Of a stretch of 64,000 nucleotides of DNA, positions 2,943-58,714 are shown one piece after another. The stretch spans positions 6,710 through 70,709 of the forward strand of contig JAGXOA010000008.1 of NCBI GenBank assembly GCA_019894715.1, in the 5' to 3' direction. The notes beneath the pieces are model-generated. The model did no database searches. It saw only the letters and a program-made list of their open reading frames with translations, and was not told where the DNA came from. This DNA comes from Promethearchaeota archaeon (GTDB lineage: Archaea > Asgardarchaeota > Lokiarchaeia > Sigyniarchaeales > SOKP01). Made by a program: the position numbers and the translations under genes. Positions within the stretch are counted from its first letter, which is position 1, and every line of letters starts with the position of its first letter.

Positions 2943-3683
2943 ATGTCCATCATAAAGAATATTAAAAACCAACTGAAAAAGAAAACTATTGAAGAAATAA
3001 ATAGTTTAATTATAGATTTATCAAAAAATCCAAATGAAAAGTCCAAATTTATTATAGAATATCTTATCAATAATCTTTCTCGAGAAGAATTTAACAGAAT
3101 AAAAATAAATCTATTTTATTTTATAGGTAGACTATCTAAAACAGAAAAAATTGAGAATATATTAATAGAATTTTTAATAGATCAATTCCAAATATCAGAC
3201 CAATGGGAAAGAAGGGAAATTACTAAATCACTTAGAATTATTTCTAAAAATCAACAATTAAATGAAGGAATTATCAATCAATTGGTGATATCTCTGAAAG
3301 AAGATTATATACCAATTATAAAAAATATATTGGAAATCATTCTAAATATTCAAAGTTTAAATCAAAATATGATCAATGATATTTTATTATTATCTGATCA
3401 TAGAGATCGAGATATATCGATACTAAAAAAGAAAATATTTCTAAAGTTTATACATAATGAAAAAGAACTCTTTAAATTGCTCGATAACATGGATTTTTAT
3501 GAAAAACTAAGTGAAAGAAGCTTTAGAAAAATAATTGTATCATATTTTAGCCAATTAATTGAATTAAAGCCCTTTAGAATTAGAATTGAAAATTCAAATT
3601 GGAAGGAAAGAAAAAAAGAAAATTTTCTTAAAGAATTAGACACTTTTCAAAAAATATTATCAAAGGCACCTAAATTTAGTTAA
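2943..3683 (+). CDS. hypothetical helical-repeat protein
   Basis: 246-aa ORF, Leu/Ile/Lys-rich and predicted all-helical. No specific family recognised. Confidence 0.45.
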   Translation: MSIIKNIKNQLKKKTIEEINSLIIDLSKNPNEKSKFIIEYLINNLSREEFNRIKINLFYFIGRLSKTEKIENILIEFLIDQFQISDQWERREITKSLRIISKNQQLNEGIINQLVISLKEDYIPIIKNILEIILNIQSLNQNMINDILLLSDHRDRDISILKKKIFLKFIHNEKELFKLLDNMDFYEKLSERSFRKIIVSYFSQLIELKPFRIRIENSNWKERKKENFLKELDTFQKILSKAPKFS

Positions 3684-3963
3684 ATATCATCAAAAAAAAT
3701 AATAAAAATATAAATATTTGTTATAAATTTTTATTAATAATTCTTAACACACCATCTCTTTAATAATCTCTCTTTTCTATATCTCTAATAAAACATCATA
3801 TTCAAGGTATATAAAAAAGAGATTATTAAAGAGATCAATAAAGATTAGCATTGGAATTTTGATATTATTATGAGATGATTTCCCTCATTTATGGAATAAT
3901 ATTCTCATTTCGAGAAAAATGATCATGAGCCTTCATCTATCATAGTTAGACTAAGACGACCTC

Positions 3964-4101
3964 ATGAATGGTAAAGTAGTCGGAGATGATTCCTTTGGGA
4001 ATTTATTCGATAGAGGTAACTGGTTTTGGCCTGTACGAATAAGGGATAAGATCCAAACTTCGTATGAACAAATTGTAGTAAAAAATGTTAATATTATTTA
4101 A
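3964..4101 (+). other. 45-codon micro-ORF inside Family-A copy 1 (coding status unproven)
   Basis: ATG 3964, TAA 4099-4101, reading [45 protein letters not shown]. The same frame is open with identical length in copy 2 (27016-27153). No Shine-Dalgarno-like sequence upstream. Confidence 0.3.
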
Positions 4102-4117
4102 CATTTTTACTATTTTT
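4078..4117 (+). terminator. hairpin plus T-tract at the 3' end of Family-A copy 1
   Basis: gtaaaaaatgttaa / tatta / ttaacatttttac forms a 13-bp stem with one bulged A, followed by tattttt. The identical structure occurs at 27130-27169. Confidence 0.55.
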
Positions 4118-4124
4118 GATAACC

Positions 4125-5321
4125 TTATTCTTGATTAATTTTATCATAATAAATAATATCATTAAAAATCTTTATTAATATCTTTATAATGTTTCTGGGA
4201 TTACCTTCTGACTTATTATAGATCTTCTTTAAAATACTTTTACTTAGAGGATAATATGGATTTTTGAAATCAGATAATATTTCGGAGGAATTGATTGATT
4301 TAAGAAATTTATCGATCGTAAGTTTATAGAATTTATAGATATCTTCTTCCTTAAAATTAGATAAAAATAATGGTTCTTTTAGATTATTTGATAGTTCTAT
4401 ATTCTCTTGTTTAAATAACTTTTTTATTTCATCTAAAGAATTTTTAGAATTCAAAGTAATAATTTTCTTTAAATTCTTGATATTTTGCAATTCAGAAATT
4501 TTACCTAAGATATTTTTTGCAACAATATTATCAGAAGACTCTTCTGCACCATAATACCAGCTAGAATCAAAAAAGGTTTCAATTTCTTCTTCTTCCTTCA
4601 TTAGAGTAATAATTTTATCAAAATCATCAATAAAAATAATAGTGCCTAGCTTAGAATTTTCTATCAATACTTTTAACATAGTAAAGGCATTTTTTTTATT
4701 TCTTAGATCATTCTCGACATCTAATAGGGCAAGTTCTCTTATATTCATAAGTTCTCCTAATAAATAATCTTCAGCATCTATTCTTTTATATGGATCTAGT
4801 TGATGTGAGGTTATAACATTTATAATATCATTTAAAGAATTTTTATCCCCAAAATCATCTTTCCATTTATTAAGCGCGTTACTTCTTGCTTTTTGGATAT
4901 CAGGTATCGGAAAGAATCCATACTTCTTTTCCAGACCACTCCAATTATTGCACAATTCTTGTGTAATCATTCTAAGGTTTTCTATTCCTAATTCTTCAAT
5001 AAATTCAGAATATAAGTTAAAATAGAATTTTCTGTAAATATTATCTAAGGATATATAGATAATATTAAACTTATCTTTAAGATTCATTTTAAGAGACCAA
5101 AATAAATGGGTTTTACCAACACCAATATCTCCAAGAATAGGTAAAATAAAACCCTCATTTTCAGTTACAAATTTTATTAAAGAATTTAAAAAATGTCTTC
5201 TTGAATCGACAAAATCTAATAATTCCTCTATTTCACCTGTAGCTACAAAATTATTAAATGGATTTATTTTTATTTTTAATAATTTTAAGAATTTGAGTTT
5301 TAGGTTTTCCCACAGAAGCAA
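4125..5321 (-). CDS. AAA+/ORC-Cdc6-like P-loop ATPase (archaeal-ATPase type)
   Basis: Walker A ILGDIGVGKTHLFW, Walker B IIFIDDFDKI, and a C-terminal lid-like SEGNPRNIIKILIKIF resembling the GxxR lid motif of Cdc6-like AAA+ proteins. Confidence 0.65.
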   Translation of the reverse strand: MLLWENLKLKFLKLLKIKINPFNNFVATGEIEELLDFVDSRRHFLNSLIKFVTENEGFILPILGDIGVGKTHLFWSLKMNLKDKFNIIYISLDNIYRKFYFNLYSEFIEELGIENLRMITQELCNNWSGLEKKYGFFPIPDIQKARSNALNKWKDDFGDKNSLNDIINVITSHQLDPYKRIDAEDYLLGELMNIRELALLDVENDLRNKKNAFTMLKVLIENSKLGTIIFIDDFDKIITLMKEEEEIETFFDSSWYYGAEESSDNIVAKNILGKISELQNIKNLKKIITLNSKNSLDEIKKLFKQENIELSNNLKEPLFLSNFKEEDIYKFYKLTIDKFLKSINSSEILSDFKNPYYPLSKSILKKIYNKSEGNPRNIIKILIKIFNDIIYYDKINQE

Positions 5322-8663: not shown

Positions 8664-8835
8664 AAAAAGAATTTTACTATTTAGATGAATGACATAGTTA
8701 TTCTATAAACTAACAACCTCCTATTATTTATATCTCTATAATTTCAATAAAAACATAGGTTGAAGAACCATCTTGTATTCTCTAATATCATATTAGGGAG
8801 TACGAATCTACTACCTTTAGGTAGTGATAGTTCAA
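8664..8835 (-). repeat. Family-B hairpin-ended repeat, copy B-8
   Basis: The reverse complement reads TTGAACTATCACTACCTAAAGGTAGTAGATTCGTACTCCCTAATATGATATTAGAGAATAC...GATATAAATAATAGGAGG. It is colinear with 48684-48830. It lies about 70 nt past the stop of the co-oriented peptidase gene. Confidence 0.75.
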
Positions 8836-10439: not shown

Positions 10440-13400
10440 TTGCTTTATCACAAAAAACAACTAAGAAATAAAATAGTTACTTGTATCGTTATTTCTATTT
10501 TTCTGATATCCAGTTTCTCAATTTTTAATTTTTCAGGAACTAATATAGAGAATAATGTTGATAGCGAAATTGATGGGCCTAATAATATATTATCTAGTGC
10601 TGCTTTTGATATTCCATTTATAGGAAGTGGAGATGATCAAGAAGGAAGACTTTATTTTGAAGAAAATTCTTCTTCATTAGGCAATAATAATGGACAATTC
10701 AATATTCCAGCGCCTGCGACAAATACATTTCTTGATTATGGAGATATGTATTTTGAATATGATGAAGATTATACAACAGAACATATAATAGAAGATCATG
10801 ATGCCTTAGGATTACCATTAGAAGATCAAATCAATTTTGGATGTACTAAACAAGGATCTGAGATGATAATAAACACTGGTACTATAGTTGGTGATTTTAA
10901 AAATGATTTATTTGGATTTGATAATAATTCATACGTAACTATTACATCAGATGGTGCAGGTGAGATTGATTTTACAATAGATTCAGACTTTTTCGGCACA
11001 TCTTTTGAAACAATAAATTACGGGACAAAGGACTTTGTTAAGGAAGAAATACTGGGATTTATTATGATTTTATCATATAATCTAACTGCTAATGCGGATT
11101 TAACAATTTCTATGTATGATGATTCTAATTCAAAATGGGTAAATGTAGTTAATCAACTTAGTCTATTAGCAGGTGGTCCAGATGAAATAAATAGATTAGT
11201 AGAAAGAATAGTAAACACAAATCTTAAATTTATTAATGGATCGGATTACAGCAATATTAATTTTCTATTTGAAGGCACTGGTACATATGATATTAGTTTA
11301 CATGAATTCAGTGTAAATGCGACTTATGCTTTTCAAGCTGATTTAGATTACCAATATCCATTAGCTTTAGAACTTGATATTAGAGGAAATAATACTCTTT
11401 TAAATGGATTTTATGCATGGATTAGAACTGTAAATTACTCTGCAGCAGAAACAACAGAATTAAACATAACACTTTATAAGTCAAATAAAAAAGTCATAAA
11501 TAGAAATAATCTTAATGCAGATGATGATGCGATTCCTAATACGCTTATATCAGATTATTCAATCTCATATGTAAACTACACAGAAGATAAAATAGATTAT
11601 TTTAAATTTGAAACAACTTTGAGATTAGATTTATATAATTATTTTATAAGAATAGATGTAAATAACTCTGATGTATATAAATTAGTTACTCTGGATTCTG
11701 ATGATGAAAGTTATGGAGACGATGAAGAAGATCATATTCTTAAAAGATATACAGGTACTTATTGGGAAAGAGTAAGAATAAATATAAATCCTGGTGTGAC
11801 ACCTTATACTACTGGATTTTTAGATGCAAGTAGTTTTAAACTTAATATAACCAGAGGTTATATGCCATCTGATTTTATTTATGATGATGTTCAAACTCAA
11901 AAAATAGATGGAATATCAGTTGAAGGTACAAATGATCCATATTTTGATTATAGTGTTGCTGATGGATATCAATGGGGCCTTGGAAAATGGAACAATACAT
12001 TTAATAATGCTATAACTAATGGAGGAAGTTCAGATTTTACTGTGACACTAACATGGAACAATAGTGAAATCATTGATTTTTACTTTGATGTCTTTTATTA
12101 TGTCAGAGCTTATTCAAAACATAATGTTGGTGCCCTTTATTCAACCTATTATAACGAAATCTCTGAATGGGCTTTCACTTTTACTGCTTCATTTAGTGGT
12201 TATACATGGGATTTTGTAGATTTATGGTTTGTCTATAATAAAAATTTTGAAAGCACATCTCTCTATACCCCACTTAATGGTACTGTAAATGCTTTAGAAG
12301 ACACTAATGGAGAACAAATTTTAAATAGCACTCATGACAAATTGATTCTTCCATATGAAATGGTAGAAGAAATTGATGGCGTCTACGAACTTAATACAAC
12401 GAGTTATAATGCTATTGATAAAGTTTATAGTTATCTTGATTATAGTGGCAATTTATGGGAAAACCAAGGTTTTATGAATGGAGATGTTATGAAAATAGGA
12501 GCGGACATAAGAGGAGATGAAAGAATAGCACCTAATAATGGTGATATTAATGCTACATTGTATTTTCCTGATGGATCTATCTATATTTATGATTTAGATT
12601 TGACAGGAACATTATCAAGTAATGGAGAAATTCTTTCATATACCTTCAATAATGACGTTTTTCTAAATGTAGATCATCCAACAACTCATAGTGGAACATA
12701 TAATCTTGGTATGATATGGAATAATGGAACCTCAATTGGATGTAAAAGTATCCCTATTTATTTTGATGAATACAATATTACCTTTGGAGATTTAACATTT
12801 AATCAAGATTTAGATTATAATCTACTAAGTCTTGAAGAAATTTCAAAAATTACAGATTTGGATTCAAGAGATCCGCAAGAATATGATTTATATCTTGCTT
12901 CAATAAATCAGACATCTAGTTTTCCTGCAGATTTCTATGCAATAAATAATTCAGAAATTAATCAAGAATATATTTATGAGAGTTATATTGGCGACTTAAC
13001 AATTAATCTTCAATCATTTTTACAAAACGAGTCAATAATAAATCCTGATGAAAATATCAAATTCAAAATTACATTAGAAAATCGGGATCCTATTATAGAT
13101 ATAAATCTTAAGGTATCAGTCGAACTTGTCTCATTATTAAATAATCAATGGATTATTGCTAATGATACTTCTCCAACTCAAGTTTTAAAACAATCTGGAG
13201 ATCCAAATGGTGATAATATCAAAGATTTTATGATAGATTTTAATATACCTATAATACAAGCAGGGGGAATTTGGGATGGCGTTAATGCACCTATCCGAAT
13301 GGGTGGTGCTAAAGCTATTGTAAAGATTTTTCTAGATGATGAAATAATTGGAATATATGAATGTCCTGATTATGCTTTACTTGTTGAAGAAACTGAGGAC

Positions 13401-15061: not shown

Positions 15062-15211
15062 GTATCCTTTTTAGAAATTTAAAATAGTAATTTATTTAAC
15101 TTAATTATATATATCACCATAAAAAATATTAAATTTATTAAATCTTGCTAAAAAATAGGATTCAAATATTTACTGTATTTTTTATAAAACATTGATACAA
15201 TTAATTCCAAA

Positions 15212-15510
15212 TTGAACTACCACTCCCTAAAGGGGGATGGATTCCTTCTTGCTTGAAAATTATCCAAAAAGATTCTGAAGAATCTCTTTAGGTCTTACAT
15301 TATCTCCAAAAGCGTGGTTTCCCGTTGTCCCAACGATAGATGTATCATCATGTATGATTGTGTGATATATCTCTCTTTTTGCAATATTCTAATTCCTTCC
15401 TCAATTAGATTAAGGGAAGTATTTTCATCCTATCATTACAATGCTGTGTTTTTCTAATTTTTTTAAAATCATGCTTAATTCATAACTCCCATAAATGGAG
15501 GTGTTTTCTT
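15212..15510 (+). repeat. Family-B hairpin-ended repeat, copy B-15
   Basis: Starts TTGAACTACCACTCCCTAAAGGGGGATGGATTCC. Ends AACTCCCATAAATGGAGGTGTTTTCTT. The interior differs from other copies. Confidence 0.6.
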
Positions 15511-26571: not shown

Positions 26572-27015
26572 GATGGAACAAGTTATTGAGATTAAATTGA
26601 TTTATAAAATAATTATATTTTAAGATATAATAGTTATAACTATCATATAATAAAAATCTTAAATATTATTGTTTGTATTATTTCTATTATTATTATTCAT
26701 TATGAACTTTTCTCACAATCATATCATCAAAAAAAATAATAAAAATATTAATATTTGTTATAAATTTTTATTAAAATTCATTCATCGTAATAAATAGACC
26801 AATAATTAAATTATTAATAATTCTTAACACACCATCTCTTTATATAAGATCTTTTCTCTTTTCTATCTCTCTAATAAATCATATCATTAATAAAGACTAG
26901 CATTGGAATTTTAATATTATTGTAAGAGGATTTCCCTCATTTGTGGAATAATATTCTCATTTCGAGAAAAATTATCATGATCTTTTATCTGTCATAGTTA
27001 GACTGAGACGACCTA

Positions 27016-27153
27016 ATGAATGCTAAAGTAGTCGAAAACGATTCTTTTTGGAATTTATTCGATAGAGGTAACTGGTTTTGGTCTGTACAAATAAGGGACA
27101 AGATCCAAACTTCGTATGAACAAATTATAGTAAAAAATGTTAATATTATTTAA
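27016..27153 (+). other. 45-codon micro-ORF inside Family-A copy 2 (coding status unproven)
   Basis: [45 protein letters not shown]. Same length and frame as copy 1. Confidence 0.3.
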
Positions 27154-27169
27154 CATTTTTACTTTTTTT
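27130..27169 (+). terminator. hairpin plus T-tract at the 3' end of Family-A copy 2
   Basis: Same stem-loop as 4078-4110, followed by ttttttt. Confidence 0.55.
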
Positions 27170-27223
27170 GATAACCTAATCAAAGCTTAATCTTATTAAA
27201 AAAAGCAAAATTTATCAAAATAT

Positions 27224-46255: not shown

Positions 46256-46845
46256 AAGAAAGCCCATTCCTTTAGGGAGGAGACAAATTTTGTTATAAAA
46301 ATTATTGCAAAAATCACTAATCGATATCATACCTTATTCTTAAATATAGGAAAATATTGATAATATCAGGGTTGATCATAGCTTACAAAAATCTTGACAA
46401 ATATCTGGACATTTTTTAAATTATTATTAGATTAGAAGGTTTTTTTATAATTTTATATATAGAAAAAAATCTATACTCATTTTATATATAAAATTTAGAA
46501 AATCAAGCTCGACTTTTTCTTTATATATGAATGTATATTATGAAGATAGCAAAAAAAAAAAATAGAATTGATAATATAAGAAAGAAATTATTATATTTTT
46601 CTCATTGGAATTAAAAATAAAGTGAAAGAGGATTTCCTTCAAATCGAGAAGAAATTATAAATTCTTTGGCTATGTCTATATGGTGTAGTCATGATCGTCC
46701 GTTGCCGATCCCTCAGGAGGTCATTTATTGATGTCCATAAATGTCCAGATTTTTTGCAACGGTAGAGAACAATTCTATAGTGTCTAAGATTCTCATTGAG
46801 GTTTAGGGACTGCAAATCCACTTCATTTAGGTATTGGTAGTTCAA
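46256..46845 (-). repeat. Family-B hairpin-ended repeat, long copy B-46 (~590 bp, with internal cargo)
   Basis: The reverse complement starts TTGAACTACCAATACCTAAATGAAGTGGATTTGCAGTCCCTAA and ends TCTCCTCCCTAAAGGAATGGGCTTTCTT. Both termini are colinear with the ~194-bp copy at 58521-58714, and about 380 bp of extra sequence lies between them. Confidence 0.7.
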
Positions 46846-48159: not shown

Positions 48160-48687
48160 ATGGAATTAGAGAAAAATATAAAAATACTGATACACGAAAG
48201 AAATATTCAAAAAACTATAAAAGAAATAGCTCAAATTATAAATAAAGATTATCGAACTAAAAATCCCATATTAATATGTGTTTTAAAAGGCGCATGTATT
48301 TTTTTTGTTGATTTAATTCGTTATTTAAATATAGAAATTGAAATTGAGTTTATTGAATTATCCAGTTATGGAGCAAATATTGAAAGTTCAGAAAAAGTTA
48401 AAATAATTAAATGGTTAACATCAGATATAGAGAACAGAGAAATAATCATCATAGAGGATATTGTTGATACAGGGATTACTATAGATTTTCTCATTAACAA
48501 ACTTAGTGAATGTAATCCTTTATCTATTAAATTATGTTCATTAACAAGTAAACCAACCAAACGAAAAAAAAAAATAAAAATAGATTATATAGGATTTGAA
48601 ATTCCAGATAAATTTATTATTGGTTATGGGTTTGATTTGAATGAAAAGTATAGAAATTTAAGAGATATTTATTATATTGATGATTGA
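48160..48687 (+). CDS. hpt: hypoxanthine/guanine phosphoribosyltransferase
   Basis: Preferred ATG at 48160 (MELEKN). Motifs ILICVLKGACIFFVDL, the PRPP loop IIIIEDIVDTGITI, and IGYGFD. Confidence 0.85.
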   Translation: MELEKNIKILIHERNIQKTIKEIAQIINKDYRTKNPILICVLKGACIFFVDLIRYLNIEIEIEFIELSSYGANIESSEKVKIIKWLTSDIENREIIIIEDIVDTGITIDFLINKLSECNPLSIKLCSLTSKPTKRKKKIKIDYIGFEIPDKFIIGYGFDLNEKYRNLRDIYYIDD

Positions 48688-48880
48688 ACTACCTCTACCT
48701 AAAGGAAGTGGATTCGAACTCCCTAATATAATATTAGACAATACTGGATGGTTCTCCAACCTATGTATTTATTGGAATTATAGAGATATAAATGATAGGA
48801 GGGTGTTAATTTATAGAAGAATTATGTAATTCATCCACTCCTTAAAATAAGTGGCTTTCTTGCATATAAATGGTAAAAAG
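48684..48880 (+). repeat. Family-B hairpin-ended repeat, reference copy B-48
   Basis: TTGAAC (48684-48689) overlaps the hpt stop codon. Hairpin 1 is CTACCTCTACCTAAAGGAAGTGG and hairpin 2 is CCACTCCTTAAAATAAGTGG, followed by CTTTCTTGCATATAAATGGTAAAAAG. Confidence 0.75.
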
Positions 48881-58520: not shown

Positions 58521-58714
58521 AAGAAATTCCCTTCTTTTAGGGATGGGATGAATTTAAAAAAAAGAAATATTGTAAAAATCCTTAATTGATATCACAACCA
58601 ATTCTTAAATAGAGAAAAACATTAATTAGGGTAGAGAAATATCCTGTAGTGTCTAAGATTCTCATTAAGGTTTAGAAACTTAAAATACACTTCCTTTAGG
58701 TAGTGGTAGTTCAA
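58521..58714 (-). repeat. Family-B hairpin-ended repeat, copy B-58
   Basis: The reverse complement starts TTGAACTACCACTACCTAAAGGAAGTG..AACCTTAATGAGAATCTTAGACACTACAGG and ends CATCCCATCCCTAAAAGAAGGGAATTTCTT. It is colinear with both ends of B-46. Confidence 0.75.

Follow-up and report, generated by a model that had tools for sequence, protein, structure and literature searches.

In TnpB elements such as ISDra2, the omega RNA, or right-end element RNA (reRNA), shares sequence with the 3' end of tnpB and with the right end of the element, and abuts the transposon boundary. In characterised TnpB elements, the stretch encoding the C-terminal tail overlaps the scaffold of this guide RNA (bioRxiv 10.1101/2023.11.30.569447; PMC10691335). 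Standalone omega RNAs acting in trans, and palindrome-associated transposable elements (PATEs) that often encode omega RNAs, have also been described (PMC10691335; bioRxiv 10.1101/2023.03.14.532601). IS200/IS605 and IS607 elements are described as being without terminal inverted repeats (TIRs) (PMC6188088; PMC10691335), whereas DDE-linked TnpB transposons possess them (PMC10691335). Here, a short repeat designated Family A is described from a 64,000-nucleotide stretch of DNA, hereafter the window, of a Promethearchaeota archaeon (GenBank assembly GCA_019894715.1, contig JAGXOA010000008.1). The window has a G+C content of 25-30%, and is part of a 71.7-kb contig of a metagenome-assembled genome (MAG) named 'Candidatus Lokiarchaeota archaeon', with KGD63_ locus tags; identical sequence is also found in ENA and Logan assemblies.

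Family A very probably derives from a TnpB-encoding insertion sequence (IS), as a PATE-like, non-autonomous element that lacks genes but retains a standalone omega RNA. The comparisons below demonstrate that the element descends from TnpB, that its genes were lost while both ends and a structured RNA region were kept, that it multiplied, and that relatives differ in carrying it. An internal deletion would have removed the nuclease gene and any transposase gene, leaving a left end (LE) with a hairpin, a variable spacer, a conserved module, the last 41 codons of tnpB, and a right end (RE) with a hairpin (Table 1); complete open reading frames (ORFs) within the element are all 45 amino acids or shorter. 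Movement, now or formerly, would have depended on a transposase acting in trans from another locus. What is known of such elements suggests that the + strand is transcribed and, by analogy, that the RNA may serve, in trans, a TnpB whose gene lies elsewhere; its guide would then come from the right flank (4126-4145 for copy 1, and the corresponding 20 positions for copy 2), and RTATY, to the left of the element, would resemble a target-adjacent motif (TAM).

Table 1. Features of the two Family A copies in the window
Feature	Position	Strand	Remarks
ATATC left junction, copy 2	26721-26725	+	(A/G)TAT(C/T) before ATCAAAA in 4/4 independent insertions
Left end (LE), copy 2	26726-26773	+	tip ATCAAAAAAAAT; subterminal palindrome TAATAAAAAT 26737-26746 / ATTTTTATTA 26764-26773
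43-nt segment of copies 2 and 4, deleted in copy 1	26775-26817	+	pairwise alignments
Variable middle section, copy 2	26818-26885	+	not conserved in L022
Upstream conserved module, copy 2	26886-27015	+	contains AAGAGGATTTCCCTCATTTGT, and GATTTCCCTCATTT at 26929-26942; conserved in L022
Hairpin TTCTC-ATTTC-GAGAA in upstream module, copy 2	26954-26968	+	
45-codon frame, copy 2	27016-27153	+	annotated KGD63_00435; codons 4-44 (27025-27147) are the putative TnpB-tail relic
Predicted omega-RNA-like scaffold, copy 2	27031-27165	+	six helices; paired-column analysis
Right end (RE), copy 2	27127-27177	+	subterminal palindrome AGTAAAAAATGTTAA / TTAACATTTTTACT; tip TTTTTTTGATAACCT; inter-copy homology stops there
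Right flank, would-be guide if the RNA reads through RE, copy 2	27178-27197	+	AATCAAAGCTTAATCTTATT; suggested by omega-RNA layout (PMC10691335; bioRxiv 10.1101/2023.11.30.569447)
Whole element, copy 1	3684-4125	+	junction ATATC 3684-3688
LE hairpin, copy 1	3700-3736	+	
Upstream module, copy 1	3834-3963	+	
RE tip, copy 1	4114-4125	+	
Putative TnpB-tail frame, copy 1	3964-4101	+	KGD63_00350
Predicted scaffold helices, copy 1	3979-4113	+	

The evidence for descent from TnpB comes from a profile of three peptides of the 45-amino-acid type (copy 1, copy 2, and P0002 of the same MAG), with which 1.84 billion representative proteins were searched by hmmsearch, giving 14 matches at E<=0.001. Several of these are fragments of transposon nucleases that end, at the stop codon, in ...ESYTS.CSSLD...GSNY.LNADVNGALNILRKVVGDDFI..LSDRGYWFQPVRIRD.FQTSHEQFLLK.VNIS; the ending ...NADVNGALNILRKVVGDDFI..LSDRGYWFQPVRIRD.FQTSHEQFLLK.VNIS is shared by P0124, P0127, P0128, P0131, P0133 and P0134, and two matches bear the source names 'transposase' and 'putative transposase'. 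Two of the proteins, P0124 and P0134, match Pfam PF07282 (Cas12f1-like TNB) and NCBIfam NF040570 (guided_TnpB, RNA-guided endonuclease TnpB), the latter profile stopping at ...NILRK, one residue ahead of the part kept in the element. In the reverse direction, tblastn of P0124 against the window finds copy 1 at 66% identity over 41 amino acids (3973-4095, E 9e-13) and also 27025-27147 in copy 2, for which the tblastn identities are 44-57% over 41 amino acids. The true tnpB 3' end of a further locus, L019, also matches the element at the DNA level. The homology is confined to 41 codons, and beyond the tails of the element tblastn with TnpB detects no TnpB-like sequence in the window or in the fetched loci. 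Given the profile, Pfam/NCBIfam and tblastn matches, the 45-codon frame is, on sequence evidence, a fossil of the non-catalytic C-terminal tail of TnpB (its last 41 codons) and no small-protein gene. One of the matches, P0131 (99 amino acids, from an ENA contig of 547 nt), is a chimeric ORF in which a helix-turn-helix (HTH)-like N-terminus, MKAYEVLNLLRVSRPTLTNYVKQ, is fused to the ~77 last residues of TnpB. This N-terminus is reminiscent of IS607-type TnpA or of an accessory HTH protein, and the ORF suggests another internal-deletion derivative, in a related element.

Copies 1 and 2 (3684-4125 and 26721-27177) can be aligned end to end and are ~90% identical, with the 3' 300 nt being 90% identical and gap-free, and with the LE 98% identical; the LE tip is kept even in a distant gene-less element on another Asgard contig (L022, 9671-10161). 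Relative to copy 1, copy 2 has 43 nt more after the 5' block and lacks 33 nt, at about 26888/26889, that include the right arm of a perfect 18-bp inverted repeat of copy 1 (3754-3771 / 3818-3835). These indels, the longer one put at ~45 nt, the lost arm, and the retention of a 5' block and a 3' core around a dispensable middle had all been noted in a first-pass annotation made from the sequence alone, and the alignments agree. The polarity of the indels had been misjudged, with the 43 nt taken as extra in copy 2. A third copy known as DNA, copy 4 (L020 9557-10054, from the same MAG), holds both variable segments, so that the 43-nt difference reflects a loss from copy 1, bounded by TTATTA(A/T)AATT direct repeats, and the absent arm a loss from copy 2, copies 1 and 4 both retaining those 33 nt. 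The inverted repeat itself (3754-3835) is perfect in copy 1 only, the left arm in copies 2 and 4 being 6 nt longer and imperfect, and it is the source of the sole Rfam matches at E<10, which are microRNA-like and spurious.

The tail and right-end region was aligned between the three Family A copies, L022, and the tnpB 3' end of L019. Six helices can be placed on the + strand, with 42 pairs and 94% of cells paired; in copy 2 they lie at 27031-27063 (inner 27040-27055), 27066-27084, 27085-27117 (inner 27096-27106), and 27127-27165. Twelve pairs have changed on both sides, compared with 4.4+-1.5 in shuffles (0/500 reach 12) and 1-5 in slid controls. For instance, one 6-bp stem reads GAUUCC/GGAAUU, GAUUUU/AAAAUC, and GACUUC/GAAGUU in three lineages, in which the encoded residues differ (SFG, FIQ, FIR). 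The many G-U pairs indicate that the + strand is the RNA strand. A check for compensatory changes had been proposed as favouring an RNA over a micro-protein, and its outcome supports the RNA. As modelled, the conservation of the tail and right-end region is conservation of RNA structure, and the predicted scaffold is an uncatalogued omega-RNA family in Lokiarchaeota, for which this is a first structure model. Rfam, including the IS605-orfB and RAGATH-type omega-RNA motifs, gives no match at the gathering score in the window, L019, L020, or L022, and a covariance model of the scaffold finds no further copies in 142 kb.

Upstream of the tail lies a conserved module of 130 nt that is kept in L022 and shows 6 compensatory pairs against 2.0+-1.2 in shuffles. 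This module resembles neither the tnpB coding DNA of L019 nor any Rfam family, and gives no Pfam match in the three + strand frames. Its derivation from decayed TnpB coding DNA was dropped for lack of similarity to L019, as was, for lack of a Pfam match, the notion that the module or the middle section is a relic of a transposase or of the N-terminus of TnpB.

Hairpins are predicted at both ends of the element, in DNA that is A+T-rich, at 3700-3736 and 4075-4113 in copy 1 and at equivalent positions in copies 2 and 4. The predicted LE palindrome, TAATAAAAAT...ATTTTTATTA, resembles that of the RE in direct orientation, which is the pattern of IS200/IS605 elements. In the first-pass annotation, the left end appeared only as a retained 5' block, and neither its identity as a transposon end nor the likeness of its hairpin to that of the RE was seen; the 'terminator hairpin' at the other end is indeed a hairpin holding the stop of the frame, and it is the subterminal palindrome of the RE. 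The tips, TATCAAAA... on the left and ...TTGATAACCT on the right, are conserved in L022. All four insertions are preceded by RTATY and terminated by ...GATAA(C/G)CT; the right tip GATAAC(C)T is common to Family A and L022, and the TnpB-linked L019 ends in CGATAAC-TAA. The ATATC of copy 2 is either a target or TAM-like motif to the left of the element, or the first bases of the element. A target-site duplication was sought and none was established. Elsewhere in the window, 54 nt at 15111-15164, starting ATATCACCATAAAAAAT and located 50 nt upstream of a copy of a second repeat family (Family B), are 70-74% identical to the left end of Family A; they may represent an isolated left end or, the DNA being A+T-rich, a coincidental match.

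The genome holds five or more Family A copies that were called as ORFs: those at 3684 and 26721 of the window, one on L020, and two known from their ORFs alone. The flanks are unrelated at every copy, the copies diverge by 7-9%, and all of them have the same junction between upstream sequence and TnpB tail, from which it follows that the deleted form itself multiplied. Copy 1 occupies the entire gap between the stop codons (3681-3683, 4125-4127) of two convergent genes, and copy 2 is located between divergent genes for an ADP-forming acetyl-CoA synthetase (ACS) and a cyclophilin. In the closest available relative (L008; ACS protein 87% identical, from the same sample set as the window genome), the ACS-cyclophilin spacer is 197 nt and without the element, its flanks aligning to those of the window after removal of ~451 nt. 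Independent ENA/Logan contigs of the window genome (L004, L005, and L006, matching window 27014-27223) terminate in the element's 3' end, at points 90 or 164 nt upstream of the cyclophilin gene, and such assembly breaks are an independent indication that the element is repeated in the genome. The distant L022 element is 73% identical to Family A over the 3' 254 nt, and has in common with it the left tip, the module with AAGAGGATTTCCCTCATTTGT and TTCTC-loop-GAGAA, the TnpB tail, the hairpin, and the TTGATAACCT tip; its middle section is not conserved, as in Family A.

With regard to the genomic surroundings, the neighbourhood of copy 4 includes eukaryote-like genes, namely a ThiF(E1)-UQ_con(E2)-JAB cluster and a gelsolin gene (L020 5667-8397 and 16639-17637), and an actin gene (L022 7059-8594) lies close to the L022 element; these signature genes are consistent with an Asgard origin of all these contigs. 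An IS4-like DDE_Tnp_1 transposase gene at the end of the L008 contig (233-1537) is unrelated to Family A. Beyond these loci, exact 20-mer scans of GTDB genomes and JGI metagenomes returned chance matches in G+C-rich DNA only, four scans of viral contigs for the element found nothing, and a PDB sequence search with the TnpB fragment was uninformative.

The frame running over 45 codons from ATG to TAA is open in copies 1 and 2, as first reported, and also in copy 4, the stop codon falling within the 3' arm of the terminal hairpin. The MAG annotation calls five Family A ORFs on four contigs: KGD63_00350 (copy 1), KGD63_00435 (copy 2), KGD63_06895 (P0002), KGD63_08670 (P0137), and KGD63_15170 (P0123, the ORF of copy 4). 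That the hypothetical proteins KGD63_00350 and KGD63_00435 are a real small protein would agree with the open frame in three copies, with its being called as a gene, and with an ATG at the same place in P0125 of a distant element, but it is very improbable. The frame is not whole in all copies, since in P0002 an unrelated N-terminus of 24 residues precedes the 35 conserved residues of the C-terminus, and in P0137 the final six codons are frameshifted; P0125, in turn, reads through the stop. In P0002 and P0137 the frame is broken while the nucleotides stay conserved, which is the pattern that the first-pass annotation had named as evidence against a micro-protein. Between copies 1 and 2, the earlier count of 10 nucleotide differences and 7 amino-acid changes is exact, the frame diverges by 7.2% versus ~10% in the 115 nt upstream, and the minus-strand frame is likewise open in both. 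By codon position the differences are 4/3/3 for copy 1 against copy 2, 12/8/9 for copy 1 against L022, and 11-14/8-9/8-9 for the three Family A copies against L022, with no excess at third positions, and the ratio of nonsynonymous to synonymous changes (pN/pS) is 0.25-1.0, no lower than in the other five frames. The earlier view that purifying selection on a protein leaves no sign here is therefore borne out. The survival of so long a frame had been called notable, but 13-17% of dinucleotide shuffles of the element contain an ATG-initiated ORF of 45 codons or more, so the length does not exceed chance expectation, and across this stretch four of the six frames stay open for 40-54 codons. The persistence of the frame in some copies reflects no more than their youth and the relatively high G+C content of the stretch, and what it encodes is the non-catalytic tail of TnpB only. 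Two related candidates were set aside. The ATG is unlikely to be the original tnpB start, because in the comparison with L019 it aligns with the internal Leu of ...NILRK, and a type I toxin or leader peptide was dropped, because the peptide lacks hydrophobic character and the genes flanking copy 1 are convergent. Equally, an ordinary family of chromosomal small-RNA genes, duplicated in the genome and unrelated to transposons, would account for a covariation-supported structured RNA at intergenic positions, but homology to tnpB 3' ends, transposon-like ends, unrelated flanks at each copy, and absence from the orthologous site of the closest relative make it extremely improbable.

Two further alternatives accept the TnpB origin, and differ from the PATE-like reading with respect to present activity and to parentage. 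It is possible, although on balance doubtful, that the copies are now inert debris, the decaying remains of a dead TnpB IS that neither move nor make a useful RNA and that resemble one another because they are young. The copy-specific deletions in copies 1 and 2, the failure to find TnpB or TnpA nearby, the T-runs ahead of the right boundary, and an inter-copy divergence spread across the whole core are all as expected of debris; against this, another Asgard lineage retains the gene-less build and upstream module at 73% identity, the helices having undergone compensatory changes, and the deletion junction common to all copies is that of a form that itself multiplied. It is unlikely, in turn, that the parent was a TIR transposon with a DDE transposase, for example of the IS630-linked TnpB branch, rather than a Y1 element, and that Family A is a TA-flanked miniature inverted-repeat transposable element (MITE). 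What such a parent would explain is that the ends are also inversely similar, with 50/57 matches overall in copy 4, including 18/18 at the tips, a score that 0/1000 shuffles reach, and with p about 0.001-0.007 in the other copies. TA stands before T(C/T)ATCAAAA in 4/4 insertions, TA or TTA follows GATAA(C/G)C, and inverted terminal repeats are a property of DDE-associated TnpB transposons (PMC10691335). However, the palindromes match almost equally well in direct orientation (scores 20 vs 23 and 22 vs 26 for copies 1 and 2), the outermost 4-5 bases are unlike between the ends (ATATC vs AGGTT), the perfect 18-bp tip match is found in copy 4 only, and the position of the TA at the right end varies. 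The inverted similarity is in large part a consequence of the two like palindromes, so that the parent may have had a transposase of either class.

Several observations weigh against the PATE-like reading itself. The inverted similarity of the ends would be unexpected for IS200/IS605 or IS607, and the single empty site, that of L008, is diverged and fixes the junction to ~15 nt only, so that no clean target motif or duplication can be read from it. Some copies may be dead, as copies 1 and 2 have internal deletions. No intact tnpB or tnpA was found in the window or in 142 kb of related loci, and no transposase, TnpA, or TnpB is found among the window ORFs scanned (37/52 of those of at least 100 amino acids). 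The covariation comes from three lineages, with helices derived from the same alignment, the upstream module has no explanation within this reading, and runs of T5-T7 located 8 nt before the right boundary could end archaeal transcription ahead of the guide.

The upstream module is the ground for a bolder and decidedly less probable proposal, namely that the gene-less elements could be, beyond deletion debris, a self-standing guide-RNA gene family of Asgard archaea. The module, whose AAGAGGATTTCCCTCATTTGT is an invariant 21-mer, is absent from L019, the one TnpB-linked locus available. Two lineages with only 73% identity both keep it, and it could have a dedicated role in expression or processing, or extend the scaffold. 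If this were true, the elements would be a source of additional guides for a TnpB, or for a nuclease-dead TnpB-like regulator, whose gene lies elsewhere, and the prokaryotes most closely related to eukaryotes would possess a dispersed guide repertoire without arrays.

Family B, the second repeat family, has copies in the window at 8671-8835 (-), 48684-48848 (+), 46761-46845 (-), 58630-58714 (-), and about 15212-15245 (+), and another on a parallel-assembly contig, L016, at about 12850-12978. All copies begin with the invariant TGAACTAC, followed by a TAAA(G)-loop hairpin and then TGGATT, and the hairpin arms covary (CTACC/GGTAG, CTCCC/GGGGG, CGGCC/GACCG). There are two subfamilies that differ downstream, and neither has an Rfam match; the family may represent a structured RNA or, alternatively, the terminus of a different mobile element. 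The L016 contig ends, ~1 kb past the 3' end of the window, in an unusually G+C-rich stretch (12830-12978) starting GTGAACTACACACGGCCTAAAGACCGTGG..., which may be a diverged or ancestral member of Family B. No tRNA genes were found in the window.

For annotation, the consequence is that at least five 'hypothetical proteins' (KGD63_00350, _00435, _06895, _08670, and _15170) are probably translated relics of a TnpB tail, which removes a false small-protein lead. For biology, gene-less derivatives that apparently retain a guide RNA have proliferated among the Asgard archaea, which bear on how the eukaryotic relatives of TnpB (Fanzors) arose, and the definition of the scaffold and its boundaries could help to locate the cognate nuclease and its target motif.

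Compared with the MITEs of TIR transposons, including those of DDE (IS630)-linked TnpB elements (PMC10691335), Family A is similarly short, gene-less, and multi-copy, with inversely similar ends and TA beside both. It differs in that its outermost bases are asymmetric, the inverted similarity stems largely from two like palindromes, and no duplication is demonstrated. With respect to the omega RNA of the ISDra2 type (layout: bioRxiv 10.1101/2023.11.30.569447), the predicted structured RNA of Family A likewise overlaps the frame and the RE and abuts the boundary, whereas tnpB is gone but for 41 codons, similarity to the sequences of characterised omega RNAs is lacking, and T-runs precede the boundary. 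The closest likeness in build is to standalone omega RNAs and PATE-like gene-less IS200/IS605 derivatives that carry an omega RNA (Altae-Tran et al. 2021, summarised in PMC10691335; Meers et al., bioRxiv 10.1101/2023.03.14.532601). As in those systems, Family A is gene-less, multi-copy, and dispersed, and like a PATE it keeps both palindrome-bearing ends and the guide-RNA scaffold region, so that nuclease and transposase would act in trans, a use proposed here by analogy. Unlike them, its ends are also inversely similar, it occurs in an Asgard (Lokiarchaeota) archaeon with a scaffold that has no Rfam match, and it carries an extra 130-nt module, conserved and apparently structured, upstream of the TnpB-tail relic.

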